Made by a program: the position numbers and the translations under genes. A DNA stretch of 64,000 nucleotides from a virus (lineage: Duplodnaviria > Caudoviricetes): positions 128,001-192,000 of IMG/VR virus record IMGVR_UViG_3300020375_000001. One strand, given 5' to 3'. Of this stretch, positions 4,005 through 35,979 are shown piece after piece. The notes beneath the pieces were generated by a model. It was not told where the DNA came from. It saw only the letters and a program-made list of their open reading frames with translations, and made no database searches. Each line of letters opens with the position of its first letter. Positions within the stretch are counted from its first letter, which is position 1.

Positions 4005-4744
4005 TTGTTACTCTTTTCCCAAATTCTTAATAATCGTGCCCCATCTTCTTTTAACATTAAATCACTGACTTTGAGCTGTTCGGTTGCCCACTGGTCTGGA
4101 GTAAACAACTCTTTGTCAAAGCGTTCTGACACCTCACCTTTTAGGTTTACAACACACCAAGGATTATTTTGAATGAGGTCGTTATATTTAGCAACTGTCT
4201 CACTGTCCATATCCAGCTTAATTAGCGATGTGTGTTTAGCATCTGTCAGGGATGGATACTTGCGAATTACGATATCCCACGTGTAGCCCGATACCAGTAA
4301 ATCACATACGTTGTTGTCAAATTCCACCAGCCAACAGTACTTCAGTTTCACCGGCTTATTCTTCACTGAGTTATCCCAGATTTGCTCCAACCGCATGTAC
4401 GTGTAAATGATGCTGTGGAAATATCCCGGAAACACTTTAGGATATTGCCCCTCTAAACGAGCATTGAGTTCGTTTACTTCCACACACAAATCGACGATGG
4501 CATGGGTCATTGCCTTATGCTTTTCGTCTTTCTCAAAGCAGACCTCAATTGAATTTGCTTCCAATAAAGGATTGGTGGTGAAGTACTTATCGATAAGCAG
4601 TACAAAGAGGTTTTTCTTTGCCCCAAAGTCAGCCACCAGATGTGTTAATATTGCTTTACGTACAAAAGCGTTGATATACATTTGAAACTGCGTTTTGTAC
4701 ATATAGTTCATGTTACCCATTACCATATTGCATCCCCACTCCAA
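4001..4744 (-). CDS. Hypothetical protein
   Basis: 247 aa ORF in operon context; start uncertain. Confidence 0.75.
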   Translation of the reverse strand: MEWGCNMVMGNMNYMYKTQFQMYINAFVRKAILTHLVADFGAKKNLFVLLIDKYFTTNPLLEANSIEVCFEKDEKHKAMTHAIVDLCVEVNELNARLEGQYPKVFPGYFHSIIYTYMRLEQIWDNSVKNKPVKLKYCWLVEFDNNVCDLLVSGYTWDIVIRKYPSLTDAKHTSLIKLDMDSETVAKYNDLIQNNPWCVVNLKGEVSERFDKELFTPDQWATEQLKVSDLMLKEDGARLLRIWEKSNK

Positions 4745-4866
4745 TTAAAACGACCCCATATACAACGGTCACGATAGCGCCACCAAATATAAGAGCACTT
4801 AACCATGGTTGTTTGTGTGCAAAATTGGCAGCTTTAATTATAAACTTTTCCACTAATACTTTTCCA

Positions 4867-5154
4867 TTAATGACCATAGTTGAAACCAATCCAGAAACTG
4901 TTACCCGTCTTAGCGTTGGTTACTTTCTCATCCGTAGAACCACAGCACCCAGCCTCTTGCACTCGACGATACTTGTCGGTCATTCCGCCAGTTTCATCAG
5001 CAAGGCACACCCGAGCATTATCTACGCATCCACCCTTTTCAATTTTTCGATACAACTTACCCATTTGATTACATAGCCACAAGTAGTCCTTTGTGTTATC
5101 AACTACCTGTCTAACCATGTGTCCGTATATTTTAGTATTAAACGTTTGTGGCAT
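4867..5154 (-). CDS. Hypothetical protein (95 aa, GCCG motif)
   Basis: Leader TTAAATAAAAGGAA with SD, downstream of a candidate early promoter. Confidence 0.7.
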   Translation of the reverse strand: MPQTFNTKIYGHMVRQVVDNTKDYLWLCNQMGKLYRKIEKGGCVDNARVCLADETGGMTDKYRRVQEAGCCGSTDEKVTNAKTGNSFWIGFNYGH

Positions 5155-5297
5155 TTCCCCTTCCTTTTATTTAAGAGATAACGGTACCCATCAATAAGAT
5201 AATCGGACTCAATAATTTTTGCCCTATCACAACTTCTACATTAAGTATCTGTCCACTTGGATAATATAGGGCTGTAATATTCTGGTCTACGGCATAA

Positions 5298-5317
5298 GTG
5301 GACGGTTTCCCGTCCAC
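5298..5317 (-). terminator. Terminator hairpin with adjacent TATGCCG motif
   Basis: GTGGACGG-TTTC-CCGTCCAC directly after the stop of 5326..6969. Confidence 0.7.
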
Positions 5318-5325
5318 CCATTTAG

Positions 5326-6969
5326 CTACACGGCACGTACCATGAAACCAGACACGCCCAAGTAAAGGTCTTCGTGTTCGGCCTCAATAATCCATACCAC
5401 GCCTACCAATGCACCCGTATCTAACTTCACACCAAAGTTCAGTGTTTGATTCCACGATGAGATTGGATAGCGTTTACGCTCTTCACCTACCACCACATCA
5501 AAGTGGGTTGGTACAGGCGCAGACGATTCAATGGCTTTATCGTACAGCGGTAGCGTTGGACGGAAGGTCTTAGTTAACCACTCGTCCACGGAGTTCGCAT
5601 CTACATCTAACTTAAATGCGTAATCCGATACCGTTACCAGACGCTGTTCCGCGTAGATACCTTCACCATAGGCTTGGCCACCATGGTCTTCGTAATGCAC
5701 TAACCAGCTTACCGTATTCGAGATACGTGGCGGACCAAAGACCACCAGCTTAATGCTTTGTACATGACGATATGGTGCGTACGATGCATCTACTTCGTTC
5801 AGACGGATAGATACAGTAAACGTTTGTTCCACACCCCACAAGGTAGGGTTAAACGTACCCAAAGAACCTTCACCGTACGTAACCAAGTTAGTCACTTCCA
5901 GAATTTCTGAACGAGACAGGTTAGCCAAGAAGTAGCGCGGCTTCCACATACTACCGTCCCAATCAGGGTACACAAACAACTTAAGGTTGTATTCGTGTTG
6001 AGCAGGTAGCGTATGAATGCTGTACTCTTTGGTAATGTGGTTGCTTCCTGTAGCAGATTGCTTCGTTGAGATTTCATTAGCATCCATGCGGTAGCTTAGT
6101 ACCAGAGGATGATTGTAATCAGGCGAAGACGCTACGTAGTTATCCAAACCGTAAACACTAAAACGAGTGCCATCAACTGGATGTGTGACACGGTCACCGT
6201 TATTGTAGATAACCTCTGCCATAAGACCTAACGAGGACACAGGCAGGTTTACAGGAACTTCTAAGACGTTTGAATCAGTACGCATCCATGGGGACTTAAG
6301 ACTGATGCCGCTGACATAGCGAGCACTGTTCAATCCCTTGTTGGACAACGCCGTTTCTACCACGACCATTTCCGTAGTAGAAATCCGACCACCCTGTTCA
6401 TTGAAGATAACGGCGGTAACGATATCGCCGCCGGTCAATGTATGGGTAGTATGGGATTGCTCTGGTGTAAATGCAGTATGAATACCTGGCTCACCCTGCT
6501 GGATAGGCTCAAGACCCACACGGTCATTTAGGTAATTACCAGTGCCGTCGTAGTTCTTCGAAATGACTTCGTCAACTTGTTCGTCATTGTACCCAAGGTA
6601 ATACTTAACATGGTCTGCGTCCTTACGGTACAGACGCAACTTAGCGTCTGCCGTAATAGTAGCTGGAACAACTGAGTTGTCCACATGTAAGACGTAATAC
6701 TCGCGAGGAGTATGACCACCATTACCGAGGAGAACGTCCAAGCCAGACGCATCGATGTTTTGATTAGGAGCCTGCCACGGTTCTACGATAGAAATCCCCG
6801 TGTCAACATTCAGGCTAATGCATCGCATTGGCCCATGGACCCAGCTCCAAATCATGTCATCAACGTTAGGACATACCTGACCAGTCCCGTTCGGGCCGGT
6901 ATAGATGTCCTTTTCAGAATGGACAGTAAAACTTCTGTCCAACTGAATGATAGGTCTTTTAATAGACAT
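5326..6969 (-). CDS. Virion structural/baseplate protein (phiKZ gp26-like)
   Basis: Size (547 aa) and position in the conserved terL-gp26-gp27-gp28 / sheath-tube block. Confidence 0.75.
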   Translation of the reverse strand: MSIKRPIIQLDRSFTVHSEKDIYTGPNGTGQVCPNVDDMIWSWVHGPMRCISLNVDTGISIVEPWQAPNQNIDASGLDVLLGNGGHTPREYYVLHVDNSVVPATITADAKLRLYRKDADHVKYYLGYNDEQVDEVISKNYDGTGNYLNDRVGLEPIQQGEPGIHTAFTPEQSHTTHTLTGGDIVTAVIFNEQGGRISTTEMVVVETALSNKGLNSARYVSGISLKSPWMRTDSNVLEVPVNLPVSSLGLMAEVIYNNGDRVTHPVDGTRFSVYGLDNYVASSPDYNHPLVLSYRMDANEISTKQSATGSNHITKEYSIHTLPAQHEYNLKLFVYPDWDGSMWKPRYFLANLSRSEILEVTNLVTYGEGSLGTFNPTLWGVEQTFTVSIRLNEVDASYAPYRHVQSIKLVVFGPPRISNTVSWLVHYEDHGGQAYGEGIYAEQRLVTVSDYAFKLDVDANSVDEWLTKTFRPTLPLYDKAIESSAPVPTHFDVVVGEERKRYPISSWNQTLNFGVKLDTGALVGVVWIIEAEHEDLYLGVSGFMVRAV

Positions 6970-21000: not shown

Positions 21001-23562
21001 TTACAAATTTGCAAAGTATTCGTCCGCTACCTTTTTGGAGAGAACTTCTAAAACCCGATTGGTAGTGCCCATGATATCGGGACTTAGTACGATACGGTTA
21101 GCAATCGACTGACGCCCAAAGATTACATCAATCGGTTCCCCGCTCTCGGTTTCGTTAGTACCAGTCATTACCCGCCCGATAATGGTCTTCAGCTGATTAC
21201 CCAATACCGCCTTATCACCGACCCCTGCAGGGAGTGACTTAGTGATATAAATCTTAATAACCGCTTGGTCCATTACAAGTCGACGTCCCTCAACGTTGAT
21301 AGGTTCGTTTACTTGTCCGGTGGTGGCATCTTCCAGAGAAAGACTTTTGACTCGTTCAGCCCGTTCTTTATCAGCTCGGTTGACGATAGTCTTAAGTGAA
21401 CTAGACATGTCGGCTTTGTCACCGTTATAGAGAACTTCGATTTTCTCTACCACACCTTTGTTCTTTGCCTTAGGGTTTAACTGACCCAACGCCTTTAGAG
21501 ATTCCGCACTTTCACTATCAATAAGCGAGTTATTGGCCGTTAGTTGGTCCTCTAGCGTACATAGGATAGTTTCTAAATCTACTTCATCTCCGACTTTTAC
21601 AAGATTTAAAATACCCTGTTCGAAGTCAATTACGATGTTTCGCACCGCTGTGATTTCAGTAGAAAGACCCGCACCCAGTTTTTCCGATACCGCACAGGAG
21701 TCCTCAAGTGTATCTACTGACTCCATCAATGCCACGTTAACAAGCGCACCTGCTTTCCAGTTGACCTGAGTATTATCATCATAGTCACGTTCAAAGAAAC
21801 CAGTGTTCCAAGACAGGATATGTCCCGCCTTAAACTTCTGGCCTTTAATCAAGTCAGACTCAATGCGCTGGGGTACGTGAGTACCGTTAACTGTACCGTA
21901 AACCGTTCCCAGTTCAATCTTCACAGAGCTGCCGTCTTTGTACTCAACTGTCAGGTGCGTTTCCCCAACATCCGTTACCTTCCCTTCTTGCTCCGCTGCA
22001 ACAGCGAACATTGGGTCGACACGGTGAGCCAATACTTGTTCGTATCCAGTGGATAATGGCATGACCTTGTAGTTCTCAGCGGCAACGCCATGAGAATGCT
22101 GAATACTAATGAAGTTTGTCCGCTTAGGGTCATCACTGGTTGCACCCGGTGACAGAATAGCAGACGTTGACAACAGTTTGGTAGCTGACTTCTCTTTACT
22201 ATCCACTCGCTTAGTTGTACCACGAATTGAATCAAAGTTCGGGTCCGCAGTTAAGTAAGTGTTAATAGCTACTGAGCCAGAGTCCACCGTTGCTTCTGAA
22301 ATAACACCCATGTCGTTCTTGTGGTATACACGCGAACTCGCTACCATGGAACGAGAGGAACGACCGCCATCACCAGAGTAAGTCACCAGTTCTTTCTCTT
22401 TCAGGTTATGGACAGGGTTCAACTCTTCTACCGTTTTAGTAGTAGCATCTTTTAGGATGTTCATCCACACAGCTTTTGGATTCATCTCAATGCGAGACTG
22501 AGAGCTCATGGGCTGTGCTTGTTGTTTACGAATAGAAGCAATCAGCTCTTTGTAGATAAAGCCAGGCATACGCTCGTAGCCTTTGATGCGCATATATTCC
22601 GTATCAGTCTCATCAGGAGTTCGGTCGTCTTTTAGCAGTTCAACTGCTTTGACTACCAGCCCTTCAAAAGACCGTGGCTCTTTACGACGCTCTAAGATAC
22701 CATCGGTAATGGGGTCGATAAATAAAGGTTGCAGTAAATCCATCTCACGAATGAAACGAAGTCCCACACCACGAGATTCCAACACTGGTTGGTATACCGT
22801 CTTCTTATCAAACTCTTCGCGGTTGAATTGTTTGATTGCCGAACGATACTCGTAGAACCCATTTAGCAACATGGTGATTTCTGGGTCATCCGTTGGGTAA
22901 ATAAGCGTTTCATCTTTAAAGACGATACTGGCTTCCCCATCCTCTAACTCTACCCGCTGCCCCTTACGTACCGAACGAGTCTTTACTTTAATAATGCGTA
23001 GCAACTTGGTTAAACCAAGCATGTAGCCCAGTACTACGCCCGCCGGTATAGCCGTCGAGAATATCTTAACTTCGGCCATGTCGTTGGGTTCTTTACCCAA
23101 ATCAGTGCCGAGCAGACTAGCCAGACTACCAATAGTGTCAACATTGCCATCAACGTCGCTGTAATGATACAGGCCAGCGTTATCCAAGGTAATGAACTTG
23201 TTACCTTTCCCTTTACCGCAGACCACGTGTCCACGACGTTCAAGTTTCTTAAGTACGTCCGCACCATAAAGAACTTCTCGTTTATCGTACTCATACGACA
23301 TGTCACCAGCAGCACACTTAAAACTAAGAATGCCTTTAGCCATTCCACTATAGGTTGGTGGAACTTTCGCTGACTTACTGACCGCATTACCCTGACGAAC
23401 GGAAGTGATAATTGTGTTTTCATCATCCACTCCAAGCGTAATAATCTTTTTACGCTGCCATGCCGAACGGTCATAGACCGCCTTCGAGCTTCGAGTTACG
23501 AACAGCTTACCGTAATAACTGGTTAGCGCTACGGTATCTGCCTTGGTTTTACGGATGGGAAG
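21001..23562 (-). CDS. rpoB: Virion RNA polymerase beta subunit (phiKZ gp178-like), exon 2
   Basis: Begins LPIRK after the intron terminal G. RpoB motifs SDDPKRTNFISIQHSH, GDKAVLGNQLKT and DVIFGRQS. Confidence 0.9.
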   Translation of the reverse strand, partial: LPIRKTKADTVALTSYYGKLFVTRSSKAVYDRSAWQRKKIITLGVDDENTIITSVRQGNAVSKSAKVPPTYSGMAKGILSFKCAAGDMSYEYDKREVLYGADVLKKLERRGHVVCGKGKGNKFITLDNAGLYHYSDVDGNVDTIGSLASLLGTDLGKEPNDMAEVKIFSTAIPAGVVLGYMLGLTKLLRIIKVKTRSVRKGQRVELEDGEASIVFKDETLIYPTDDPEITMLLNGFYEYRSAIKQFNREEFDKKTVYQPVLESRGVGLRFIREMDLLQPLFIDPITDGILERRKEPRSFEGLVVKAVELLKDDRTPDETDTEYMRIKGYERMPGFIYKELIASIRKQQAQPMSSQSRIEMNPKAVWMNILKDATTKTVEELNPVHNLKEKELVTYSGDGGRSSRSMVASSRVYHKNDMGVISEATVDSGSVAINTYLTADPNFDSIRGTTKRVDSKEKSATKLLSTSAILSPGATSDDPKRTNFISIQHSHGVAAENYKVMPLSTGYEQVLAHRVDPMFAVAAEQEGKVTDVGETHLTVEYKDGSSVKIELGTVYGTVNGTHVPQRIESDLIKGQKFKAGHILSWNTGFFERDYDDNTQVNWKAGALVNVALMESVDTLEDSCAVSEKLGAGLSTEITAVRNIVIDFEQGILNLVKVGDEVDLETILCTLEDQLTANNSLIDSESAESLKALGQLNPKAKNKGVVEKIEVLYNGDKADMSSSLKTIVNRADKERAERVKSLSLEDATTGQVNEPINVEGRRLVMDQAVIKIYITKSLPAGVGDKAVLGNQLKTIIGRVMTGTNETESGEPIDVIFGRQSIANRIVLSPDIMGTTNRVLEVLSKKVADEYFANL

Positions 23563-25103
23563 CACCCCCATCCAAAGTGGACCATATCTTCATCCTCAAT
23601 TGAGGAGCCTACCGTTTGGGGTTTCCCCTACTCTACTCACTTCAATCACTTGTGTGACCAACCGATTATTACACCACGGTCGTCATTAGTCCGTACTATG
23701 TACGAATGTAGTTTTCGATGGCCTCTGAACACATCCCGTATCTAACGACTTAGGGACTTCGCTGCGTCGGTTATGTCTCCATTAAACGTTTTTACCCTGC
23801 CACCCTCTTCCATTACTGGGGATGGTATTGTGGCGTGTTTCCACCCACAAGTGGTAGTTTAATAGATTATAGACATTTTCCCGCAATTAGGTAGGTTTGT
23901 CTTAGTCGTATTACTACGACTGGGAGACCCTATGTTAATTGGTTTTAAATTATCGAGATATTAAGTTTAGCTAACTCGAGTGAAAGCATCTTCCTAAGTC
24001 TTCTTCTATCCAAATCAAGATAGTTCAATACTACTAGCGGAATCTGTTTACTATTAGCTAACTTTACTTTATCCCAATCCCGCATCTTGGTTTCCTCTAA
24101 AGCTTCGTAACCACCGAACCGTTCTACTGGCTCATAGTGTTGGATACCGTGAAACTCAATGAGTACTTCAAATTTGGGTAGAAAGAAATCGTATCTAAAT
24201 AACGACCCGTCGAATTTATATTCTCTTTTAAACTCAATCCCGTTTACTTCCAAGATATGTGCTATCTGACGCTCACCTAAAGATTCCCTACATCTAGGGC
24301 AACCCTGTTTCTGGGAAACGTGTCGGTTAGGATTAGTTTTAAAAGGACCATGTCCTTTACAGACCACCGTTATAGGTGTCTTGTTATTGACATACTCGAC
24401 TCTGTCGTAATTGTAGATATGACCATGTACCTGTTGTGCCTCAGCTATAAAATCTTCTAAAGTCTTTTTAGTCGACTCACGATAGCAGGCTGGACACCCA
24501 GAACCATTTAGGTGTACCCTAGCCTTTTGATGGAATGTCCCATGTTTGAAACACCCAATCTTTACGGTTTCGGTATAACCCCTGAAATCAAGGTTTTGGT
24601 AACAGTACTTGTTGCCATGTACTAACTTAGCTTTTTCTAGGAACTTCCCTTTATCCATTATGGCTTCCGAAGTCGCACACGTTGGACAATTGGTCCCCAA
24701 CTTGTAATGATTATAGGGCTTTACTTTAAAATCCCCATGCTCCCTACAGGTAACGATAATAGGTGTATCGGTGTTACTAAACACCACCTTATCGTAGAGG
24801 TAGCGGTCACCGTGTTGTTCTTTAGCCAATTTAATAAAATCATCTTTAGTAAATTTACCGGAACAAGCCAAACAACCTTTAGAGCCTCTAACTAAGTAAC
24901 ACGGCTTGGTTATATATTCACCGTGTTCCATACAACGAACTTTAATAGGTTTCTTAGAACCTAAGTATTTTGACTCCGAAAAATCTAATGAGTCATTATA
25001 CATTTCTTTCATCTTGTCGTAGAATTCTTTCTCTCTACGTTTAAAACCTTTTAACATAATTCATATCTCATGGATATTATTCACATAAGATATGTTGCTT
25101 TTT
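23563..25103 (-). mobile_element. Group I self-splicing intron (1541 nt) carrying a homing endonuclease
   Basis: P AAUUGCGGGAAA, Q CGCAGC, R GUUCAGAGGCCA, S AAGAUAUGGUCC. P3 CCUACC/GGUAGG, P7 GGCCA/UGGUC, P8 UCCUC-AAUU-GAGGA. IGS GUCUCCC pairs with exon GGGAGAU (U.G at the splice site). Ends in G. Splicing gives in-frame KQRGD-LPIRK. Confidence 0.92.
23945..25057 (-). CDS. Intron-encoded homing endonuclease (DUF723-like Zn repeats plus EDxHD/Vsr-like nuclease)
   Basis: Four C-x2-H...G-x1-2-C-x2-C repeats. C-terminal GERQIAHIL...RYDFFLP...LIEFHGIQH. Confidence 0.88.
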   Translation of the reverse strand: MLKGFKRREKEFYDKMKEMYNDSLDFSESKYLGSKKPIKVRCMEHGEYITKPCYLVRGSKGCLACSGKFTKDDFIKLAKEQHGDRYLYDKVVFSNTDTPIIVTCREHGDFKVKPYNHYKLGTNCPTCATSEAIMDKGKFLEKAKLVHGNKYCYQNLDFRGYTETVKIGCFKHGTFHQKARVHLNGSGCPACYRESTKKTLEDFIAEAQQVHGHIYNYDRVEYVNNKTPITVVCKGHGPFKTNPNRHVSQKQGCPRCRESLGERQIAHILEVNGIEFKREYKFDGSLFRYDFFLPKFEVLIEFHGIQHYEPVERFGGYEALEETKMRDWDKVKLANSKQIPLVVLNYLDLDRRRLRKMLSLELAKLNISII

Positions 25104-26516
25104 ATCTCCCCGCTGTTTGGCCATATGGTACACAACGCCATTGGCTTTGAACTTGCCATCCTTTCCTACTTTAGGAAGTCTGACGTGAACAGTCGAGGGC
25201 TTACCACCTAACGGAGTTAACTGAATAGAATAGTGGTCGTATTTGTTCGCCGCATCCATTACAGTTTCACGTTTAAAACTGGTTACTGCCACACCGGTGT
25301 TCTGAACATTCAGAACCATTGCCGCTACGTCCTTCTCGAGGATTTTACTGATGTAGTGGGCATCCGCTGTTTTAAGCGATGACTTAAGCATGTTTTTATC
25401 AAGCACGCCATCTAAGTCAGGGGCAGACCATTCAGGAATCTCAAGGTCTTTCTCTTTTACAGTAGCCTGCTCTTCAAGAGACCCAGAGCCATCGGTGGCT
25501 TCGATGGTTTTATACGTGTTGGCCAGACGTACGGCACGTTTGTATTCCGGTAATGACATCTGACCGGCATCGCGCAATTCTCTAGCCTTACCTTCAACCG
25601 CAATAGTGCGGTCATTAGTATACACATTGGTAGACAGGTCAAGGTCTTCTTCGGTGAAGTCTTCTTCGGTTGCATTGGTAATCGTCTCCAATTCCTGCAC
25701 GCGAGTCAGGTAACGAACAAAGGCTTTGTCAAACTCACCATTAATTTGCTCTTCGTCATCGCTTAACTTTTCGACCTTCCATGCCTGTAACTCACCCAAG
25801 TTCAGAATACTGAATTTACCCCCACGCATAAATACCAAGTTAACATACTTGATATTCTCACCAAGAATAGTATCCAGTTCATGAGTACCTTGAGTACAGT
25901 ACTGCCACAGGTAATAGAAGTACAGGGATTCCACTTTCTTAAACGGTTCAAGCGATTCAAGCGTGGGTTTCTTATTTAACATACGCAGTTCTTCCAGCTC
26001 AGGAAATACTTCAGGTATCTCCATGTGGATAAACTGGTTACGTAGAGTTTCTGCCGTTAGTTTTGCCACGGTATCCCAAACAGTACGATTTAGGTTACTC
26101 CACTCGTACCAGCTTTGTAGTGCATTACGGCTATAGCGGTAAATGTGGGGTAGCATGGCATAGTTTACAACAACCAAATTGTTTTGGTCCCGTACACCCT
26201 GCTCAAACTTCCGTAGCTGGCGAATCTTTCTCATTCGCTTGTGGTATATCTTTAAACGCGAACGCAGCTCAGAGCTACGCTGACGCGGTCTACCAAGGTC
26301 TAAGGTTAATTCTTCAATGTGCCATGCATGGCAAGACTCACGTCCATTAAACAGTGGACTGTCCTGGTCTGGACCATTTTCAGTCTCTTCGGTCGGGATG
26401 TGGTGTAGTAGCGATTCCTTTGGAAGAATCAGAGAAGCCTGTTCAAAGAACATTGGCGACTTCAACTTCTCGTAGGTTCGCACACCATACTTCCGATAAA
26501 ATTCTGGATAAAGCAT
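25104..26516 (-). CDS. rpoB: Virion RNA polymerase beta subunit (phiKZ gp178-like), exon 1
   Basis: N-terminus MLYPEFYRKYGVR typical of the family. Ends DGKFKANGVVYHMAKQRGD, comparable to RpoB [19 protein letters not shown]. Spliced product is 471+853 = 1324 aa. Confidence 0.88.
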
Positions 26517-26529
26517 TTGCTATTTCCTA

Positions 26530-26781
26530 TTAAAAGATGGTGTAATTTAGTAGGAACTGTTCTTCGCTTAGTTGTTCATAAAAGCCGTGGTCGTTCCTAA
26601 TGATGATAAATCCCGAAGGGACGTACACGGTGGCGGTGCCATCTGGAATCCGCACACCGCCATCTGGACCTTTGGTAATTCTACCTTTACCCCAAGCGAT
26701 AATCTCTTCCTGCACTTCTGTATCGAACTCAACTTTACGGAACGATACAAGGTTAGCTTTTAAAGTAGCCTGCATTTTCAT
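26530..26781 (-). CDS. Small hypothetical protein
   Basis: 83 aa; TAATG overlap with the upstream gene. Confidence 0.65.
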   Translation of the reverse strand: MKMQATLKANLVSFRKVEFDTEVQEEIIAWGKGRITKGPDGGVRIPDGTATVYVPSGFIIIRNDHGFYEQLSEEQFLLNYTIF

Positions 26782-27188
26782 TATTTAAGCTCCCGGTTAA
26801 CATTCCAACCAAATTTAATCTGCTTAGCTGGTATATCTTTAGTATAACCAAATGTACCAAAGCGATTAATGGAGTCCAACCAATTCCCCTTACCGGAGTC
26901 TTCGTCAGCTACCGCAAATTCAGGTAGTAGCCCACTAACTTCGAAGACATCAAAGTCCCCGAACTTTTTAAGGAACTCATGGTGCAAATTAACGTTACCG
27001 CTATGGGCAAGGTAAATGGCTTTCTTCTCAGGTGCAGGACCGTACCCAGATGGGTCAGTATCTAAACTTAACCCGTCCTTAAGTATGGATTCTCGATTCT
27101 TTCTAGGGCTATAGTGGTAGAAGACATCTTTCTTAAACTGTCGTTCTTCCTTAATGGCCTCTAGACCTTCGGCTAGTATGGGTCTCAT
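26781..27188 (-). CDS. Putative ADP-ribosyltransferase-fold protein (Tpt1/KptA-like)
   Basis: FYHYS..NRESILKDGL, AIYLA and terminal DIPAKQI match the ART core strands. TAATG-coupled to vRNAP beta-prime. Confidence 0.55.
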   Translation of the reverse strand: MRPILAEGLEAIKEERQFKKDVFYHYSPRKNRESILKDGLSLDTDPSGYGPAPEKKAIYLAHSGNVNLHHEFLKKFGDFDVFEVSGLLPEFAVADEDSGKGNWLDSINRFGTFGYTKDIPAKQIKFGWNVNRELK

Positions 27189-28825
27189 TATTTCAATACC
27201 TTTTCTGAACCGAAAGTTAAACCACGTAACAACCAGTCGATAGTATCCGTACCAAACATCTGTAATCCACCACGAGGGTCGATGTAACCAGTAGGCTTAT
27301 CAAAATACTTGTGAATTTCACTTTCGGCATCATCTGACATCAGGAAGTTACAACTTACTGTATCACCATCGAAGTCAGCACCTAGACCTACGAGTCGGTT
27401 AGGGTTAACACCAATGGTATCGAAGAACGGAACATTGAAGCGCGGGAACTCGTAAGCAACGTGTTCATCGTCCATCGGTTCCCACTGGTCATCAAGTTCA
27501 CGTAAGATGTCACCTTCAACCGTAGTCTTTAAATAGACCGTCGAAGGATACGTTGAACCTAGGCCGGTAATTGGATATCGGGTAATGGTACACGTCAAAC
27601 GATTCCAGTGACGATACCCGGCGATGTACAGGAACTCAGCATACGTTACCGGGTGACACTTTTCTTTTTGGCTAGGTACCAATCGGTCAAACTCACCAGG
27701 GTTTAATAGACGGAAGTGTTGCTCGTCTTTAAAAATCAGAGCAAGATACTTACCTTCTACCAAGATAGGCTTATGGCGAATGGAAGCATTCCCGTAATAG
27801 TTGATGAACTTCTCGAGTCCTTCTACTGTGGTCCAGCGGTCCATGGTTTCCGTGGTAACATTAACCCAGACAGTTTTCTTTGTCTTGCGGTCTACCAATG
27901 GAACATTCGTACCGCCAGTAAATATTTTCGAGAGGTGTCCTTTAGATAACCATGAAGTAGTTAAAGGTAGAACCCCTTTCGCCGTTTGGTATAAACCCAC
28001 TACGGTGTCAGTGGAGTCGATACTACGTGGACTGTCCAAGTCGTCGGTACCAACATCCATGGAAGTGATTACGTTACGTGTACCGTTGAAGATACGACGT
28101 GAACCCCACTTAGCCTGAATGAAACCTTTCTTACCAGTGATAAACGTTTCAAGATGCTCGTAGATAGCATTGATGGCTAACTGGAGCGAGTAGCGCGAAC
28201 GGTCATAGACCGGGTCGTTATTGTTATTAACGTTCACGGCTATCGTATTGGCAACGGAGAGTACTTTACGATACATGTCGTTAATCTCATCTTCTTGGGT
28301 ATACCCGTCTTCTGAGACTTGTACTTCACGTAACCCAGCAGGCAACACTAACCATTTATTGGTGGTGGCCGTGTCACGATATTTTTCAATTACGCTAATC
28401 CGTAGATTACGCTGGTCAGACTCCGTCTTCTTAAAACGCAGGTCTTTAAAATGGGACATGAAGAAAGCGTAACCAGTTTCCCCCTCTACTTCGCTAGATG
28501 CAACGAAGTCTTTCTCACCAGCAACCCATTTGGCATATTTCTTACCGGCAAGGATTTCACCATACAGTCCTTTAATACGAACAAGGTGGCGATGGATTAA
28601 AGGGTGGAGTACTTGTACTTTCAAGTCGATGAAACTAAAACGGTTACTTCTTTCCGTGGTACCAGACGCACCGAAGATAGAAACAGAGTAGAGTCCATCT
28701 TCATGGAAGTTTGTAGTGCCGCCATCGTATATATCTGAAACCCTAACAGGTTTCATGGATGCAGTATTCTGACCCGTCAAGTTTAACAGTTGAACATTGA
28801 ACGGCATCTTGCCTATTGCTGTCAT
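27188..28825 (-). CDS. rpoC: Virion RNA polymerase beta-prime subunit (phiKZ gp180-like)
   Basis: Catalytic GADFDGD, ITRYP, GLYSVSIFG and RNVIT motifs. Confidence 0.95.
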   Translation of the reverse strand: MTAIGKMPFNVQLLNLTGQNTASMKPVRVSDIYDGGTTNFHEDGLYSVSIFGASGTTERSNRFSFIDLKVQVLHPLIHRHLVRIKGLYGEILAGKKYAKWVAGEKDFVASSEVEGETGYAFFMSHFKDLRFKKTESDQRNLRISVIEKYRDTATTNKWLVLPAGLREVQVSEDGYTQEDEINDMYRKVLSVANTIAVNVNNNNDPVYDRSRYSLQLAINAIYEHLETFITGKKGFIQAKWGSRRIFNGTRNVITSMDVGTDDLDSPRSIDSTDTVVGLYQTAKGVLPLTTSWLSKGHLSKIFTGGTNVPLVDRKTKKTVWVNVTTETMDRWTTVEGLEKFINYYGNASIRHKPILVEGKYLALIFKDEQHFRLLNPGEFDRLVPSQKEKCHPVTYAEFLYIAGYRHWNRLTCTITRYPITGLGSTYPSTVYLKTTVEGDILRELDDQWEPMDDEHVAYEFPRFNVPFFDTIGVNPNRLVGLGADFDGDTVSCNFLMSDDAESEIHKYFDKPTGYIDPRGGLQMFGTDTIDWLLRGLTFGSEKVLK

Positions 28826-28899: not shown

Positions 28900-31800
28900 A
28901 TGTCCGACGATATAGACATCGATGATGACGGCTTTGATAGCTTTGATGATTTCGATGCTCCTGATTTCGACGGTGATGTCGGGGGCGGTAATGAATCCCG
29001 CACGCCGATTACGGCTGCAGCCAGTAGCTTCACTGAAGCGGCAACTAACGACTTAATGAGCGTTAATGCGGCTAAGCAGATAGCTCGTAAGGGATTACCC
29101 GAAGGCTATGGCGAGGCCATGGACCTCGTTGATGAGACTGCAGGCCGGGCTTCTGACCTATACGATAAAGCCGAGAAAAGGTTAGAACCTGCTATCAAAT
29201 CCACGAAACAGGCAACCCGTGGATTGCTTCCTAAGGCAGAGGGTATTCTTCCTAAAAAACTATACGAACGTATGGCTAAATGGTCGGAGGATGATGATAA
29301 CAGTGGTCCTCGAGTCAATGCCGATGAGGAATCTATTTCCACTGCACTAAGTAGTATCTTCACTACGCAGTTAGAACAACAGGAAGCCGACAAGCAAGAA
29401 CAAACCGTCCGTGACACATTAAAAGGTGAAGTGGAAGGGGAGCGACACGAGCAGAACATTGACAAGTTGAGTCTGATTCAAAAGTCGATGTCGCGCTTGG
29501 TTGGCTATCAAGATTCTGTTACTGCAGCGTACCAAAAGAAATCATTGGACCTACAGTTTCGTCATTACTTCGCAGCGCGTGATTTACTTAAATTACAAAC
29601 CGCAAGTAATGCTGATGTTATCACAGCCTTAAATGACATCAAAACAAACACAGGTTTACCTGACTGGATTAAAACCCAGACTAACGAAAACTTTAATGCA
29701 ATGCTCTCTCAACGGTTGATGGGTGGTACCGTTGATACTGTTAGTGACTACATGGGCAATTTCCGTGAGAACCTTTTTAAGGGTATTGAGACGAAAGTCA
29801 TGGGTACTGTGGGAGAGGTTGCTGACGGTATTCAGGAAATTACTGGCGGTATCAGTCAGATGAATGAAGCCCAAGCAATGATGGCGGATTTCGATGATGG
29901 ACCAACTAAAAGCGGGGCGGTGCAAGCTGCCGAGATGGCTGGTGGCATTGGTGGTAGTACGGTTGCTAATAAAATTATTAACTTTATTGGTAGGCGGATG
30001 CGTAAGGAAACTGGCGCAACTAAAGCCATTGCTGAAAAGGGTATTGAAGCATCTAACTTTGTCAGAGGCTTCGACGGTAGATTGAAGGAGTTTATAGATA
30101 CTGCGGATAGTCGCGATGGAATGCTAGGTGTAGCTGGACGCTTCTTACAGGACGTTGCACCTACAATGAATACTACGCCAAGTGTACTGCAAAATCTTTC
30201 TAAGGATGCTACAGCTTCGGTTGAGTGGGATTTATTGTCTCGCCGTACTTTGGTGGAAATCATTCCTGAGTATTTAGCACGCATTACTCAAAACACCGAA
30301 TCTATGGCAACGGGTAAAGCTGCTGAGAAGATGGTGTACAGTAAGCAATCTGAATCTTTCATGACAGAATCGGATGCTATTGCTGAAGCTACTGATAAGT
30401 TTGTGCGTCGTGATGAGATTACGGAATACCGTAGTCGTTCTGATGAGTTACTGAATAGACTGTTTAGTGGTGCACGTATTTCACCTGAAGCCCGTATGGC
30501 AATGTCTGAACAGTTACACACCGACCTGAGTCGTGGTTGGAACTTTGATGTACGTCGCTATGTAAACGCCGATGCCTTTGAATCACACCTAGACCCTGAT
30601 GCTGTTGCTGAACTACGTGACTTTTTCCGCGATAAGTTTAAAGCGAAAGAGAAGGTCGTTGACGGTAAGAGTAGTTGGGATTTTGAGTACGGTGAGCAAA
30701 CCGGTAAGTTACTTGGTAGCTTGCAGAATCAGGGTAAGAATCTTCAAAATCGAATCCCTGAAATGCAAAGTAGTATCAATGAGTTCGTTGCCACTGGCGA
30801 TAAAGATTTGTTGCGCGCTACGGGGTGGATTGACTCTACCTCAGGTAGAGACCAGTTTAACTTACAGCGCATGAATAACCTGATGACCGGTCGTCTTGAA
30901 TTAGATGACTTACAGTCGGAATGGGAACGTGACCGCTTGAAAGAGGAACGGGGTGCTGAGAAAACCAAGTGGCAAGAGCGCGACCGTGGACAATGGGTAG
31001 TTGACGATAACAGTACTGTGGAACCTGTTAAGAGCGAGCGGGCTGAGAAATCTAACCTACCACCTGTCATGAGCAGTGAAGACCGTAGTATTATCTCTGG
31101 TCTGAATGCAATGATGGGGCAGTTAAGTACTACCAGTAAAGCAAGCCTTGACCGTTTAGCGGAAATGGCTACTAACAATGTAGAAGCTTCTGAATTCAAC
31201 AGTCAACAGGTACAAATCCTGACTGAGATTCGTGACCTACTGATTGCACAGCAGATGACTGGCTTGTCCAGTGAAGACGCAGCAATGGGTGCGGAGCTAT
31301 TGAAGAAGTTTACTGCGGCGGCTAACTGGGAACAACCTAAATGGTACAATACCCTTACTAGTGGCATTGTCGATGGTGCTAAAGCTGGCGCGGGGATGTT
31401 AAGTAGTTACTACGGTGCACTTGGTAATGCTGCGTCATCCACTGTCGGTTTCTTGAAAGAGAAGGGTACTGCAGCTTGGGGTAAAATCCAAGAAAAAGGT
31501 GCCGCACTGTCAGATGTCTACATAAACGGTATGCAAATGCCTGCACTGCGTGCACAGCTTATAAAGGCTGGTCGCTATGTGGACTCGCAGACGGGGAAGG
31601 TAATTACTAGCTTAGACGATATCAGTGGCGAGGTCATTGATAAAGTAACCGGCAATGTAGTTATCTCAGCTGAGGATTATCGTGGGGGTCTATTTGATAA
31701 CCGTGGCAATACCCTGTTCGCTAAACTAGGTGCAGGAGCTCAGAAGTTAATCTCTGGCGGAATGGAAGCTCTGGGTAGCTACTATGGCTTTTTAGGTAAC

Positions 31801-34800
31801 ACTGCTGGTAATGTACTCACATGGGGCAAGGAGAAGATTACGGACCTTGACCGTAAACTAAGAACTGAGAGTGACGTATACGTTAAGAACCGTATGGGCG
31901 ATGGTCCTGCATTATTACGTACTAAGTTGTTGCGTGGTGCATACTTCGATATTGAAGGTAATCCTATCTTCTCTGTCGGGGACATTACGGGACCAGTCTT
32001 TGATGAAGACGGTAACCAGTTGATTAGTGACGAGGATATCTCTGCTGGCTTAGTTGACCCTCAAGGGGATGACATTAAGACTGCGGGTATTCTAGGCAAC
32101 GGGTTAGGGATAGTTGGTGCTGGCATCGGCCTTGCTAAGAAAGGTGCGAGTAAAGCATTCAGTGCTTTGAAAACTTACTATTCTGGTCTGGGTCAAATCT
32201 CAGGTAGTCTACTTGACAAGCTAAAGCATGGCTTTTCTGGGTTTGGTGGTTCGGAAGTTGCAGAGACAATGAATGTCACGGCGACCAACGTATACCTTAA
32301 TGGTAACATCATTCGGGAAGGTGAACCTTCGGTAGCTGAAAAGGCTGGTACCACTGTAAGCTCTGCTGTATCTACGGTACGTGAAAAGACCGGAGAGATG
32401 AGCGAGCAGTTGAAGGCCGCTACTGCATCCGTAAAAGAGAGGGCATCTGCTGAACTAAACACCGCCACAGCGAAAGCTTCAGAACTTACTGGGGCAGCAA
32501 AGGCCAAAGCGAAGGAAACCAAAGACAGTCTACTTGGTCGTGAGATTGGGGAAGACACGACACTGGTTGCTGACGCTAACGGTAATGTAAGCCTTAAGAC
32601 TGAAGAAGGGGTTATTCCTGCTGGGGATGGTTCTACCAAAGGTTACATGGCTGCATTACTTGCTTACTTCCATCGTCAGAGTCAACAAGATTCAGCCGAT
32701 GGTGATGGCGATGGTCTACGTGATGGTGGTTGGCGCTCCAAACTCTTTGGTCGTAAGAAAACCGAAGACGACTCCACTGAGGACAAACCTAAAGAAGGGA
32801 ACCGGAAAGCTGGTAAGGGTATGTTAGCTGGAATGGCTGGCTTACTTGGACTTGGCGGAGGGTCTGATGAAGATAGTGGGGATGGCGACAGTTTCGCAGG
32901 TGACGTTGCTGCTGAAGTTGCAGGGGAGTACGCTGCAGATAAACTAGGTGGTAAAGGTGGTGACAGTGATAGTGGTGGTAGAAGACGTACCCGTACGCCG
33001 AAAGGTAAGGGGAATCTAGCATCGCGAGCGTGGGGTGCAATTAAAGGTGCTGGTAGTAGCGTTAAGGAAATGGCTACCAATGCTAAAGGTCGTAGTATAA
33101 TGGGGAATGCGAAAGCGTTAACCACAGGTACGGCTGGATTAGTTGCAGGCCTTGGTAAAGGCATTAAGTCATTCGGTGGTAAACTTACCTCTGGTCCTGG
33201 TTCTAGCCTGCTTAAAAAAGCAGGGCTATTTGGGGCAAGGGCTGGCCTAGGTTTACTGGGTGGTACCTTAGCGGCGGTAGGTGGGGTGGCGGCTGCCCCT
33301 ATAGTAGCAAGTGCATTGGCTATAGCGGGTACTGCATGGACAGCCTACGAAGTGGCAAGTGGTGTGGGTGGATTCCTGTTCCGACGTTCTGAGGCAGAAC
33401 CTATTGAGCGTTATCGTTTCTTACAGTACGGTTTAAATCCGGATAACAAAGAGCATCGTGTGTTCCTGCGTATCTTGGAAGCTGGCGCTGCTGATAACGT
33501 TGAGTACATGGGACAGGATGGTACTAATAACCGTATCCTACTAGGTGACGACCCTGAGTGGTTGTACGAGGCTATGGATTACATTGGTATCGATGCACAT
33601 ACGGAATACGAGGAAGACCCTGAAAATGGTGAGCGTTTTGGCAAGTGTTACAAATGGTTCAAGAATCGTTTTGAGCCTGTGTTCTTATTACACCATGGCC
33701 ATGCTCGTCAGTTGGATGAAGACGTAGACCTACTTGACATTGACGATGAAATGGACGATGAACTGAAACATAGGTTTGTTGACCGTTCGTATTATCCCAA
33801 TAACGGTGAGAGTCAATCGCCATACTTTGTGGATACGCCATTCATCGAAGGGTATACCATCGGCTACGATGACATCGATGCGCAACGTGACGCTCTATTA
33901 GCTGAATATAAAGCGTATCAAGAAGGGGACAAGGAAGAGTCGGGTATTGGTTCTAAAATCAAGTCGGCGTTAATGATGGCTACTCCGGTAGGCATGGCAA
34001 TGAAAGCCGCTGAAACATTAACGAGTAAAGATGCTGGTACTGGTACTAAGGATGAGGAATCATCTGGAAGTATTAGTAAGATTCTTAAGGGTGGCCTTAT
34101 GGCTGTTCCTGGGGTAGGCATTGGAGCAATGTTGTACAACATGTTCTCCGACGACGATGAGGAAGTGAAGGTGAAGGTGCCACAGTTTAAAACTGAAGAC
34201 GGCAGTGACATCTCTCACTTGGATGCTATACGCTTCTACCAATACGGTGTGGGTAAACTTACTGATAGAACCGCTGCATTACTCTACCGTTTAGAGCGTG
34301 CAGTCTCTGCTGACCTTGCATACGCAGGGGATACAGTAGAGTGGTCTGGTAATCTGAAACGTATCTGGCACGATATGGCAACCGCCCTTGGCTACTCTAG
34401 AAGGGATGGTGCTGCTAGAGGGGAGTGGAACAAATGGTTTACCATTACCTTCCTACCAGTGTTTTCAGCTTACGCCGCTGCATTAAGAAGTAAGTCCGTT
34501 AACGAAATTCACAGTCCTAAGCTGTCGAAGAAGGATATGTGGGAAGTGGCGAAAGTCATTGTTCTTGACATAGCCCCTCGCTTTGCGGGTATGTTGAGAC
34601 GTGGACATGAAGCGGTGGCTAACGACGACATGGTTACTAAACTATTGTTAGCGTTAGAAGAACAGGCTAAGGTGAAAGAGAAAGAGTTTGAGCTAACTAC
34701 CCCTAACACTAAAGGCCCTGTGGTCGATGGTGTTGCTCCGGTAATGAAGTTGACTAGTACTGTTACTAGCGCAGCGTCTAAAGGGGATACGGAAGCGAAG

Positions 34801-35979
34801 ACATCTACTCCTACATCTACTCCGACAACAGTCAAGCGGAAACTGGAGACTACCAAAACTGCTACAGGCGGTGACGGGTTCGTTGTACCTGCGGATGGAA
34901 ACATTAGTTCCCCGTATGGTAACCGAGTCCACCCAATTGACGGTACAAAGAAATTCCATGCTGGCATTGATATCGCCGGACCGGAAGGTACTCCTATCGT
35001 GGCCAGTGCAAGTGGCGTTATCAGTCGTCGTGATTACTCACGTGACTATGGTAATGTTATCTACATTGAAAACGATGATGGTACACATAGCCGTTACGCA
35101 CACATGTATCGCTTTGAACCTGGCTATCGTGTTGGGGACAGAGTAGAGCAAGGTGCTAAAATTGGTGAGATGGGGTCGACAGGTGCGTCTACTGGTTCAC
35201 ACCTACACTTCGAAGTACGTAAAGATACGTATGATAAAAACTCAGCCCTAAACCCTCTGGACCTGTTTAACGGGGACAAGGCTACAAAGGCAAGAGAAGA
35301 AGTGGCCAAGGCAGTGAAAGCTGCTGAGGATGAGAAGAGTGGTAAGATAGATACAAGCCTTGAAGGTGAGAATACTATTGCATCCACTGTGAAAGGTGAA
35401 GCGACTAACCACGATGCTAAACGAGAAGCTACGGCTAGGGTGAATACTCCTCTGGTGAAACCTGCTAACATGGTACCATCTACTCCGGTAATGGAAACTG
35501 TTAAGGTAGGCTACACTGAGGATGAGGTGGCTACATTAGCACCGACTCAACCTGTTACGGCTAAGAAGTTACCAACAATTAACCATGCCCCGGTTACACC
35601 GGTACGGAAACCTAAGCAGGCAGTTGAAGGTGAGCTAATCGTTGAAGCTGAGGTGTTACAGCAAAAACGTGCACAACTTGGTCAAGAAGTTGCAAATGCG
35701 AAAAGTGAGCAACAGCTCGAGTTAATCGGGATGATACTGCATCGTCAGTTAGAGTCTAACTATCGCATGGAAGAACTAATGGCTAAGGTGGTTGATAACA
35801 CAATGGCTACAGCCGAAAGGGTAACGCCTGTTACACAACAAGCACAGAAAGACACCGGTAGCGTAAAGCCTAAACCAGATGCAAAAGCTGCTACTGGTAA
35901 AGAGCTAAACGCACTCTTCGCTAGTCGAGAGAAAACTAAGCCACTTTCGCACCCTCTACTTATGGGTCGAAACAAGTAA
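28900..35979 (+). CDS. Tail tape measure protein (gp181-like) with C-terminal M23 peptidase
   Basis: 2359 aa, divergent from gp180-like. YQKKSLDLQFRHY motif. M23 motifs HAGID, YAHM and STGSHLHFE at about 34880-35270. Confidence 0.9.
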   Translation: MSDDIDIDDDGFDSFDDFDAPDFDGDVGGGNESRTPITAAASSFTEAATNDLMSVNAAKQIARKGLPEGYGEAMDLVDETAGRASDLYDKAEKRLEPAIKSTKQATRGLLPKAEGILPKKLYERMAKWSEDDDNSGPRVNADEESISTALSSIFTTQLEQQEADKQEQTVRDTLKGEVEGERHEQNIDKLSLIQKSMSRLVGYQDSVTAAYQKKSLDLQFRHYFAARDLLKLQTASNADVITALNDIKTNTGLPDWIKTQTNENFNAMLSQRLMGGTVDTVSDYMGNFRENLFKGIETKVMGTVGEVADGIQEITGGISQMNEAQAMMADFDDGPTKSGAVQAAEMAGGIGGSTVANKIINFIGRRMRKETGATKAIAEKGIEASNFVRGFDGRLKEFIDTADSRDGMLGVAGRFLQDVAPTMNTTPSVLQNLSKDATASVEWDLLSRRTLVEIIPEYLARITQNTESMATGKAAEKMVYSKQSESFMTESDAIAEATDKFVRRDEITEYRSRSDELLNRLFSGARISPEARMAMSEQLHTDLSRGWNFDVRRYVNADAFESHLDPDAVAELRDFFRDKFKAKEKVVDGKSSWDFEYGEQTGKLLGSLQNQGKNLQNRIPEMQSSINEFVATGDKDLLRATGWIDSTSGRDQFNLQRMNNLMTGRLELDDLQSEWERDRLKEERGAEKTKWQERDRGQWVVDDNSTVEPVKSERAEKSNLPPVMSSEDRSIISGLNAMMGQLSTTSKASLDRLAEMATNNVEASEFNSQQVQILTEIRDLLIAQQMTGLSSEDAAMGAELLKKFTAAANWEQPKWYNTLTSGIVDGAKAGAGMLSSYYGALGNAASSTVGFLKEKGTAAWGKIQEKGAALSDVYINGMQMPALRAQLIKAGRYVDSQTGKVITSLDDISGEVIDKVTGNVVISAEDYRGGLFDNRGNTLFAKLGAGAQKLISGGMEALGSYYGFLGNTAGNVLTWGKEKITDLDRKLRTESDVYVKNRMGDGPALLRTKLLRGAYFDIEGNPIFSVGDITGPVFDEDGNQLISDEDISAGLVDPQGDDIKTAGILGNGLGIVGAGIGLAKKGASKAFSALKTYYSGLGQISGSLLDKLKHGFSGFGGSEVAETMNVTATNVYLNGNIIREGEPSVAEKAGTTVSSAVSTVREKTGEMSEQLKAATASVKERASAELNTATAKASELTGAAKAKAKETKDSLLGREIGEDTTLVADANGNVSLKTEEGVIPAGDGSTKGYMAALLAYFHRQSQQDSADGDGDGLRDGGWRSKLFGRKKTEDDSTEDKPKEGNRKAGKGMLAGMAGLLGLGGGSDEDSGDGDSFAGDVAAEVAGEYAADKLGGKGGDSDSGGRRRTRTPKGKGNLASRAWGAIKGAGSSVKEMATNAKGRSIMGNAKALTTGTAGLVAGLGKGIKSFGGKLTSGPGSSLLKKAGLFGARAGLGLLGGTLAAVGGVAAAPIVASALAIAGTAWTAYEVASGVGGFLFRRSEAEPIERYRFLQYGLNPDNKEHRVFLRILEAGAADNVEYMGQDGTNNRILLGDDPEWLYEAMDYIGIDAHTEYEEDPENGERFGKCYKWFKNRFEPVFLLHHGHARQLDEDVDLLDIDDEMDDELKHRFVDRSYYPNNGESQSPYFVDTPFIEGYTIGYDDIDAQRDALLAEYKAYQEGDKEESGIGSKIKSALMMATPVGMAMKAAETLTSKDAGTGTKDEESSGSISKILKGGLMAVPGVGIGAMLYNMFSDDDEEVKVKVPQFKTEDGSDISHLDAIRFYQYGVGKLTDRTAALLYRLERAVSADLAYAGDTVEWSGNLKRIWHDMATALGYSRRDGAARGEWNKWFTITFLPVFSAYAAALRSKSVNEIHSPKLSKKDMWEVAKVIVLDIAPRFAGMLRRGHEAVANDDMVTKLLLALEEQAKVKEKEFELTTPNTKGPVVDGVAPVMKLTSTVTSAASKGDTEAKTSTPTSTPTTVKRKLETTKTATGGDGFVVPADGNISSPYGNRVHPIDGTKKFHAGIDIAGPEGTPIVASASGVISRRDYSRDYGNVIYIENDDGTHSRYAHMYRFEPGYRVGDRVEQGAKIGEMGSTGASTGSHLHFEVRKDTYDKNSALNPLDLFNGDKATKAREEVAKAVKAAEDEKSGKIDTSLEGENTIASTVKGEATNHDAKREATARVNTPLVKPANMVPSTPVMETVKVGYTEDEVATLAPTQPVTAKKLPTINHAPVTPVRKPKQAVEGELIVEAEVLQQKRAQLGQEVANAKSEQQLELIGMILHRQLESNYRMEELMAKVVDNTMATAERVTPVTQQAQKDTGSVKPKPDAKAATGKELNALFASREKTKPLSHPLLMGRNK

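Follow-up and report, generated by a model that had tools for sequence, protein, structure and literature searches.

A group I intron in the gene for the beta subunit of a virion RNA polymerase (RNAP) is already known from phage PhiPA3, in which the intron carrying gp210, an HNH endonuclease, lies between gp211 and gp209 (Birkholz 2024, Science; PMC11620839). The gp210 enzyme nicks the intron-less phiKZ gene and gives PhiPA3 a competitive edge (bioRxiv 10.1101/2023.09.30.560319). In phiKZ, introns have been predicted around gp56, gp72 and gp179, the last of which is flanked by virion RNAP genes; splicing was not observed (PMC10914365). Here we describe a 64,000-nucleotide stretch (the window) of the 207,748-bp virus record IMGVR_UViG_3300020375_000001, in which positions 23563-25103 of the minus strand are very probably a mobile, self-splicing group I intron of the subgroup IA type that interrupts the gene orthologous to phiKZ gp178 in an uncultured marine jumbo phage that is phiKZ-like. 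We favor this reading because five independent lines of evidence point to it: a covariance-model match, covariation of the RNA helices, changes in helix P1 that run in step with those of its guide sequence, colinearity with homologues together with an intron-less allele, and an exon-exon joint in RNA.

The window intron resembles that of PhiPA3 with regard to its host gene, its group I nature (Rfam score of 67.8 bits for PhiPA3), the position of an endonuclease open reading frame (ORF) upstream of the ribozyme core and the high conservation of the interrupted motif. The two differ in their insertion sites, the PhiPA3 site following a DD motif (E. coli RpoB D675, window residue ~948) about 480 codons downstream, and in their enzymes, an HNH nickase in PhiPA3 and a predicted EDxHD-family nuclease in the window. 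The DD site is empty in the window, and nhmmer detected no nucleotide similarity between the two intron cores. With this locus, the virion RNAP beta gene of nucleus-forming-type jumbo phages has two independent intron sites, the second of them occupied by an intron with a different nuclease family. PhiPA3 is therefore not a one-off: homing elements have repeatedly targeted this essential, packaged enzyme.

The original prediction, made from the window sequence, placed a group I intron at 23563-25103 in a virion-type RNAP beta gene, and this is borne out by the Rfam match, covariation, homologue colinearity and the RNA joint. It also presented the dependence of a virion polymerase on splicing as a novelty, a claim anticipated by the published PhiPA3 gp211/gp210/gp209 intron. 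What is new is the insertion site, for which no paper describing an intron was found in open-access text, the endonuclease family, a covarying hairpin formed between intron and exon, and a patchy spread that includes unannotated copies in the cultured Vibrio phages vB_pir03 (pir03) and Yong XC31.

More distant parallels come from phage T4, whose td, nrdB and nrdD (sunY) introns belong to subgroup IA2. They too are phage group I introns in essential genes, with P7.1/P7.2 helices and a looped-out mobile endonuclease ORF, but their ORFs lie in P6 or P9 loops and encode GIY-YIG or HNH enzymes, and their P9 domains are ordinary. The endonuclease has its own precedent in I-Bth0305I, an EDxHD homing endonuclease that Bacillus phage 0305phi8-36 encodes in a group I intron of its recA gene (PMC3239194; PDB 3R3P). 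Both enzymes are encoded by phage introns and share conserved E/D/H/D positions and, as modeled here, a C-terminal Vsr-like fold. I-Bth0305I carries NUMOD/helix-turn-helix elements, its ORF sits in P5 and its host gene is a different one, whereas the window enzyme is predicted to carry zinc modules and its ORF sits in the P1 loop.

The interrupted polymerase gene

Coordinates are those of the window, and the host gene, the intron and the ORFs discussed here all lie on its minus strand. Between 21001 and 26516 this strand holds consecutive long ORFs of 479 amino acids (aa; 25077-26516), 370 aa (23945-25057) and 856 aa (21001-23571), which resolve into two exons and an intron:

25104-26516, minus strand: exon 1 of the virion-type RNAP beta gene, 471 codons ending ...KQRGD, colinear with uninterrupted homologues
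23563-25103, minus strand: group I intron of 1541 nt, delimited by the P1 U.G pair, the terminal G, the in-frame join, the intron-less allele of phage L008 and metatranscriptome contigs
21001-23562, minus strand: exon 2 of the RNAP beta gene, 853 codons beginning LPIRK...

The last nucleotide of exon 1 is U25104 and the last of the intron is G23563. Joining 25104 to 23562 preserves the reading frame and yields a 1324-aa protein that reads KQRGD-LPIRK across the junction (the hyphen marks the insertion site, here and below). The same junction and protein length were given by the original prediction, and they hold with respect to frame, colinearity and the exact joint seen in RNA contigs. The spliced product aligns without a gap at the junction to the beta subunits of Goslar, RTH11, Eowyn (RQRGD-LPIRK), pVa-21, a phiKZ-like phage and PhiPA3 gp211, and the alignments of Noxifer, DT01 and FLC9 likewise agree. 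An intron-less allele, which the prediction had proposed to look for, is present in the IMG/VR sister phage L008. Its uninterrupted 1323-aa beta subunit is 83% identical to that of the window, carries the same residues on either side of the site and has no Rfam match, and the two genes show many synonymous differences near the junction. With L008 included, ten uninterrupted homologues align with the spliced product in this gap-free manner.

The identity of the host gene is indicated by homology and by its neighbors. In tblastn searches, exon 1 shows 30-36% identity to genes named 'RNA polymerase beta subunit' in 288 phiKZ-like phages, with PhiPA3 gp211 and phiKZ-type gp178 among them. The order gp181 (tail lysin)-gp180-gp178-gp177 is matched in the window by 28900-35979 (plus strand), 27188-28825 (minus strand) and the split gene, and the same order is found in PhiPA3, Goslar, Eowyn, pVa-21 and a phiKZ-like phage. 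With the sister allele as query, phmmer reaches Thermus beta (E 8.6e-5), and an hhalign alignment covers residues 650-822 of E. coli RpoB; Pfam searches with the two exon products and with four full-length homologues were empty even when relaxed to E 10. We accordingly assign the window beta subunit, by sequence and gene order, as the orthologue of phiKZ gp178, a protein that is packaged in phiKZ virions and transcribes early genes (bioRxiv 10.1101/2023.09.30.560319). The phage itself is distant from cultured ones (~36% identity at the protein level), and a megablast search with the region found no match among 50,697 phage records.

An equivalence between the junction motif and a motif of RpoB was also part of the original prediction. 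When the junction neighborhood was compared by hhalign with the first 400 residues of E. coli RpoB, the best local match does pair window residues 447-473 with RpoB 127-153, at a weak level of support (E 0.017, probability 2.6%). The whole-protein hhalign comparison with RpoB did not reach this N-terminal motif.

The same ORFs could be explained without any intron, as a naturally split beta subunit made as two polypeptides, with a free-standing endonuclease gene between its halves. Jumbo-phage RNAP subunits are often split (PMC7598289), and GenBank annotates the corresponding pieces in pir03 and Yong XC31 as separate genes. However, the exon 1 frame continues for just 8 codons inside the intron, the sole in-frame ATG of exon 2 falls within the ribozyme, and the split lies inside the most conserved local motif with zero residues gained or lost. 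An Rfam match above cut-off, extensive covariation and the pairing of a guide sequence with the exon, all detailed below, also speak against a split gene, as does the exon-exon joint in RNA contigs. The explanation is already contradicted, and we regard it as extremely improbable.

Ribozyme core and covariation

A scan of the window with all Rfam models gave one match above its curated cut-off, Intron_gpI (RF00028) at 23551-23946 on the minus strand. It covers the full model (1-253) at 55.4 bits against a cut-off of 50 (E 2.4e-11), so the covariance-model scan suggested by the original prediction was positive, and it is the only RF00028 match in the whole 207,748-bp genome. The elements of the ribozyme are as follows:

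25104-25110, minus strand: exon strand of P1, GGGAGAU, which pairs with the guide over 7 bp; the U.G pair at the 5' splice site involves U25104
23922-23928, minus strand: guide sequence GUCUCCC, the 3' strand of P1, read from the sequence and from covariation (U25104.G23928 pair)
23931-23929, minus strand: AGG of a candidate P10, 3 bp with exon 2 CUU
23904-23921, minus strand: P2 hairpin, 7/7 pairs compensatory
23729-23895, minus strand: 5' strand of P3, P4, a branched extended P5 domain and P6, from the Rfam alignment and covarying helices
23895-23890 with 23613-23608, minus strand: P3, CCUACC with GGUAGG
23885-23882 with 23766-23763, minus strand: P4, UGCG with CGCA
23875-23871 with 23778-23774, minus strand: P5, UGUCU with AGACA, plus a large branched extension
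23723-23719 with 23584-23580, minus strand: P7, GGCCA with UGGUC, the guanosine-binding helix, in a P3-P7 pseudoknot
23614-23718, minus strand: P7.1/P7.2-type extension of 105 nt, a three-hairpin junction and a GGGG/CCCC hairpin, 17/24 pairs compensatory
23580-23613, minus strand: 3' strand of P3 (GGUAGG), P8, J8/7 and 3' strand of P7 (UGGUC)
23606-23593, minus strand: P8, UCCUC/GAGGA
23563-23578, minus strand: P9.0, ACU (23578-23576) with GGU (23566-23564), and the terminal G23563; 2/3 pairs compensatory

P3, P4, P5, P7, P8 and the extension of more than 100 nt between P7 and the 3' strand of P3 are all found where the original prediction had drawn them. The covarying P7.1/P7.2 helices between P7 and P3' mark the intron as subgroup IA. 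The guide is located 1175 nt downstream of the 5' splice site, directly after the stop codon of the 370-aa ORF, and the endonuclease ORF is therefore placed in the P1 loop.

Homologous introns were gathered from endonuclease homologues on large phage contigs and by two pattern scans of IMG/VR. Many phage contigs carry them at an identical codon position, QR[G/V/A]D-[L/Q/M]PIRK, and nine distinct copies were aligned for covariation analysis. RNAalifold finds compensatory changes in 58/98 pairs of this alignment. Its pairs near columns 220-233 and 403-429 conflict with P7 and were rejected in favor of the P7 pseudoknot, giving a curated structure of 96 pairs that includes the P3/P7 pseudoknot and P9.0. 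This structure compares with versions in which the partners were slid by 1-3 columns as follows:

Cells paired: curated 97.1%, slid 32-39%
Pairs changed on both sides: curated 58/96, slid 15-19
Covariation score: curated 0.53, slid 0.08-0.09

The observed covariation values were reached in 0/500 shuffles. Across relatives, the guide changes in step with the Gly/Val/Ala codon of the exon:

Window and L009: exon GGGAGAU, guide GUCUCCC
L011, L014 and L020: exon AGUGGAU, guide GUCCACU
L022: exon UGGAGAU, guide GUCUCCA
L021: exon GCGGAU, guide GUCCGC

P7 is identical in all nine copies. The copies in Vibrio phages carry GACUA/UAGUC, in line with the earlier view of GGCCA/UGGUC as a compensated version of that helix. 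Compensatory selection on the core, P1 and P9.0 is clear.

The 3' end of the intron is unusual. Only 16 nt extend from P7' to the terminal G. An internal P9 is absent, and its place is occupied by a hairpin that bridges the splice site:

23553-23573, minus strand: intron-exon hairpin, intron GGAUGGG (23573-23567) paired with exon 2 CCCAUCC (23559-23553)

The exon arm of this hairpin consists of the Pro-Ile-Arg codons, the 3' splice site is in its loop, and it is the element that Rfam labels 'P9'. It folds in 9/9 copies with six different stem sequences, and synonymous changes in the exon are mirrored in its intron arm: CCC to CCG is accompanied by G to C (L021), CCC to CCA by G to U (L017), and AUC to AUU by G to A (L009 and L016). 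In the Vibrio-phage copies the equivalent hairpin lies entirely within the intron, and thus the family of the window intron appears to have swapped the 3' arm of P9 for exon sequence.

The hairpin would present the 3' splice site. A tentative extension of this idea, which we think possible at best, is that the ordinary P9 has been replaced by a helix with codons 2-4 of exon 2, making synonymous sites of the host gene part of the 3' architecture of the ribozyme. Such a helix could determine which 3' splice site is used or control the second step, and it may be an adaptation to folding in the phage nucleus, with no ribosome behind the polymerase. The covarying hairpin poses a testable question on 3' splice-site choice.

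An intron end at 23552 was also considered, as the Rfam match extends to 23551 with the final hairpin counted as an internal P9. That end was rejected: it is out of frame unless exon 1 ends elsewhere, it is not colinear with the homologues, and the RNA joint is at 23562.

A second hairpin, also conserved, lies near the intron's 5' end:

25062-25094, minus strand: 5' hairpin of 11 bp, after the 5' splice site and before the endonuclease start (ViennaRNA -13.5 kcal/mol)

Its 3' arm covers the likely ribosome-binding site (purine-rich, upstream of the ATG) and its loop contains the stop codon of the exon 1 frame (25079-25077). An equivalent hairpin of different sequence is found in the introns of L011, L020, L023, L021, L016, L017 and L022. 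By its position, the hairpin probably limits translation of the endonuclease from the pre-mRNA. In T4 introns, endonuclease translation is restrained by RNA structure.

Exon joining in RNA and the proposed splicing pathway

RNA evidence was taken from assembled marine metatranscriptome contigs of RNA libraries, rather than raw reads, and the joint-bearing runs number three, from two samples of one study. Contigs of these 3 runs connect 25104 directly to 23562, omitting exactly 1541 nt. The joint is free of mismatches and ambiguous letters, all contigs agree to at least 99%, and one joint-bearing contig from run X1 is 12.9 kb long and unbranched through the joint. Of the splicing process, the structure of the RNA, its two splice sites and the exact joining of the exons in RNA libraries are demonstrated.

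In theory, the joined contigs could derive from a co-occurring intron-less strain with identical flanks, the window copy being an inactive, decaying intron that truncates the beta subunit. Intron-less alleles do exist in related phages (L008), the joint is known from contigs of one study, and a further run, X3, yielded unspliced junctions only. Yet L008, the nearest known intron-less allele, differs from the window at many synonymous sites, while not a single difference from the window is seen in the joint contigs. The 12.9-kb contig does not branch through the joint, the core, P1 and P9.0 bear the marks of compensatory selection, and the beta gene is essential in phiKZ-type phages. This explanation is accordingly very improbable.

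Runs X1 and X2 also contain the intron as a contig of its own, 1571 nt long, which extends from the first intron base (25103) to 30 nt into exon 2. No contig in these runs bridges exon 1 to the intron, and one bridges the intron to exon 2. The intron contig would fit a first-step splicing intermediate and is suggestive in this respect; as gaps in contig cover prove nothing and contig ends are unreliable as RNA ends, it was not used as evidence.

In the pathway that we propose for the self-splicing intron, the GGGAGAU end of exon 1 would pair with the guide 1.17 kb downstream in the folded pre-mRNA. Guanosine would attack after U25104, and exon 1 would then attack after G23563, leaving a single 1324-aa frame (...KQRGD-LPIRK...).

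A variant of this scheme is a genuine intron that folds inefficiently unaided and needs a protein cofactor, either the endonuclease acting as a maturase or a chaperone of the phage or host. The distance of 1175 nt between the 5' splice site and the guide, a P10 of 1-3 bp and the absence of an internal P9 are compatible with such a need. Conversely, the complete catalytic core is conserved and covarying, and an ORF-less copy in L020 keeps the same core, which indicates that the endonuclease is not required in cis. EDxHD enzymes are not known to act as maturases. T4 introns need translation-coupled folding in vivo, according to a study by Sandegren and Sjoberg (2007) as cited in PMC10914365, and a nucleus-forming phage could not supply folding of the T4 type, which adds to the case for a cofactor. 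On balance we consider the cofactor variant unlikely.

Several points weigh against the proposal of a mobile self-splicing intron as a whole. Protein-free self-splicing, its dependence on GTP and cleavage by the endonuclease are all properties that we infer, and packaging of the window protein in virions is presumed only through orthology. The ordinary internal P9 is missing, and P10 amounts to at most 3 bp here and to 1-2 bp in relatives. The joint is seen in assembled contigs from one study, with just 30 letters on its shorter side. Finally, run X3, which belongs to a second study, shows unspliced junctions only, with contigs across both at a depth of 4-6, a result that is uninformative about splicing.

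Endonuclease and distribution of the intron

The ORF in the P1 loop encodes the presumed agent of mobility:

23945-25057, minus strand: predicted homing endonuclease of 370 aa, four DUF723/CapR-like zinc modules followed by a C-terminal Vsr-like (EDxHD) nuclease

The ORF matches Pfam DUF723 as well as PHROG 559, 9084 and 7140, endonuclease families that include 'homing' and 'intron encoded' members. An NCBIfam search with the endonuclease returned nothing, and phmmer against the Protein Data Bank (PDB) gave only a spurious cytochrome match. An alignment of 40 homologues reveals four repeats with invariant Cys and His positions and, in the C-terminal domain, conservation of E262, D290, E301, H307, D327 and K330; E262, D290, H307 and D327 are kept in at least 90% of the homologues. 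The best PDB match of the sequence profile is 3r3p, with the catalytic positions aligned and a weak E-value of 0.39. The AlphaFold (AF2) model has a pLDDT of 90, and its top Foldseek matches are Vsr (1cw0) and I-Bth0305I (3r3p), at a probability of 1.0 each and with target-normalised TM scores of 0.52 for 1cw0 and 0.71 for the 97-residue chain of 3r3p. The corresponding E-values (4e-3 to 1.5e-2) are modest because the whole four-domain model was used as query.

The N-terminal 258 residues, where EDxHD enzymes have NUMOD/helix-turn-helix elements, are instead four DUF723/CapR-like zinc modules. Modules of the DUF723 and CapR types are DNA-binding parts of phage homing endonucleases (PMC10448857). 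Because the fold, the profile and the catalytic residues match those of Vsr and I-Bth0305I, we assign the enzyme on its model to the EDxHD family, with an unusual zinc-module DNA-binding half. In this variant architecture it is predicted to cleave the intron-less allele at a specific site, for which the L008 junction region is a candidate substrate. The label 'HNH endonuclease' carried by PHROG 559 was rejected, as the HNH motif is absent and the fold is Vsr-like. During co-infection the endonuclease would presumably cut intron-less alleles near KQRGD-LPIRK, and recombination would then copy the intron in. Cutting may also harm competitors, as with PhiPA3 gp210.

How often the site has changed state was examined in a tree built on exon 2 (its first 470 residues), in which the Noxifer row was mis-trimmed (branch length 6) and is disregarded. 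Intron-occupied and empty alleles are interleaved. The empty L008 falls with the window and L009, and the empty pVa-21 with L011, L014 and L020. L017 and L021 are placed as sister to the phiKZ/PhiPA3 pair, whose site is empty, and the Vibrio phages and L022 stand apart. At least 5 phage lineages have the intron at this site while their sisters lack it, and as occupancy is interleaved across well-supported branches, at least 4 gains or losses must have occurred.

The intron copy in L020 (L020:4259-4947, minus strand; IMGVR_UViG_3300008488_000003) lacks the ORF and is 688 nt long, its guide lying 317 nt past the 5' splice site. It retains the ribozyme, the 5' hairpin and ~25 codons resembling the endonuclease N terminus, and the homing endonuclease gene is therefore decaying there. 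As read from these sequences, patchy occupancy and decay in L020 correspond to the usual homing-element cycle of invasion, decay and loss.

Two cultured phages carry copies at the same site: vB_VmeM-Yong XC31 (MK308674, L045) at 3830-5317 and vB_pir03 (MT811961, L046) at 3829-5375. These share with the window the insertion site (QRVD-MPIRK), the ribozyme family (nhmmer E 1e-36 to 1e-53) and an endonuclease of 37% identity. They differ from it in the canonical P7 (GACUA/UAGUC), a guide directly before P3 and a P9 internal hairpin. The two copies have not been described as introns; the pir03 paper lists a homing endonuclease with an HHpred match to 3R3P (PMC7765460). Their ribozymes score 43-45 bits with Rfam, under the cut-off of 50, and the region is annotated as separate 'hypothetical protein' or 'RNA polymerase' genes, with tiny spurious ORFs over the ribozyme. 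Below the cut-off and filed as separate genes, such copies have left beta subunits mis-annotated as fragments, and genome annotators miss introns of this kind. Being cultured, the Vibrio phages lend themselves directly to experiments on splicing, homing and competition between phages.

Further group I introns were noticed in the same neighborhood. L017, L020 and L022 have a second one at the PhiPA3 gp210 site, after the DD..KR motif (for example L020:1394-1819, minus strand), and the beta gene therefore has at least two recurrent insertion sites. The gp180-like gene next to it, which is also a virion RNAP gene, holds another in Goslar, L014, Yong XC31 and pir03. Introns with an HNH endonuclease lie in this gene at L014:328-2007, L045:879-2204, L046:958-2278 and L002:1846-3739, and are annotated in Goslar only. 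The core of the gp180-like intron of Yong XC31 is recognisably related to the window intron (nhmmer 72 bits). In the window, the gp180-like gene (27188-28825) is uninterrupted. Between it and exon 1 of the beta gene, at 26530-27188 on the minus strand, are two small ORFs of 135 aa and 83 aa, and L008 has only ~400 nt between its gp180-like gene and beta.

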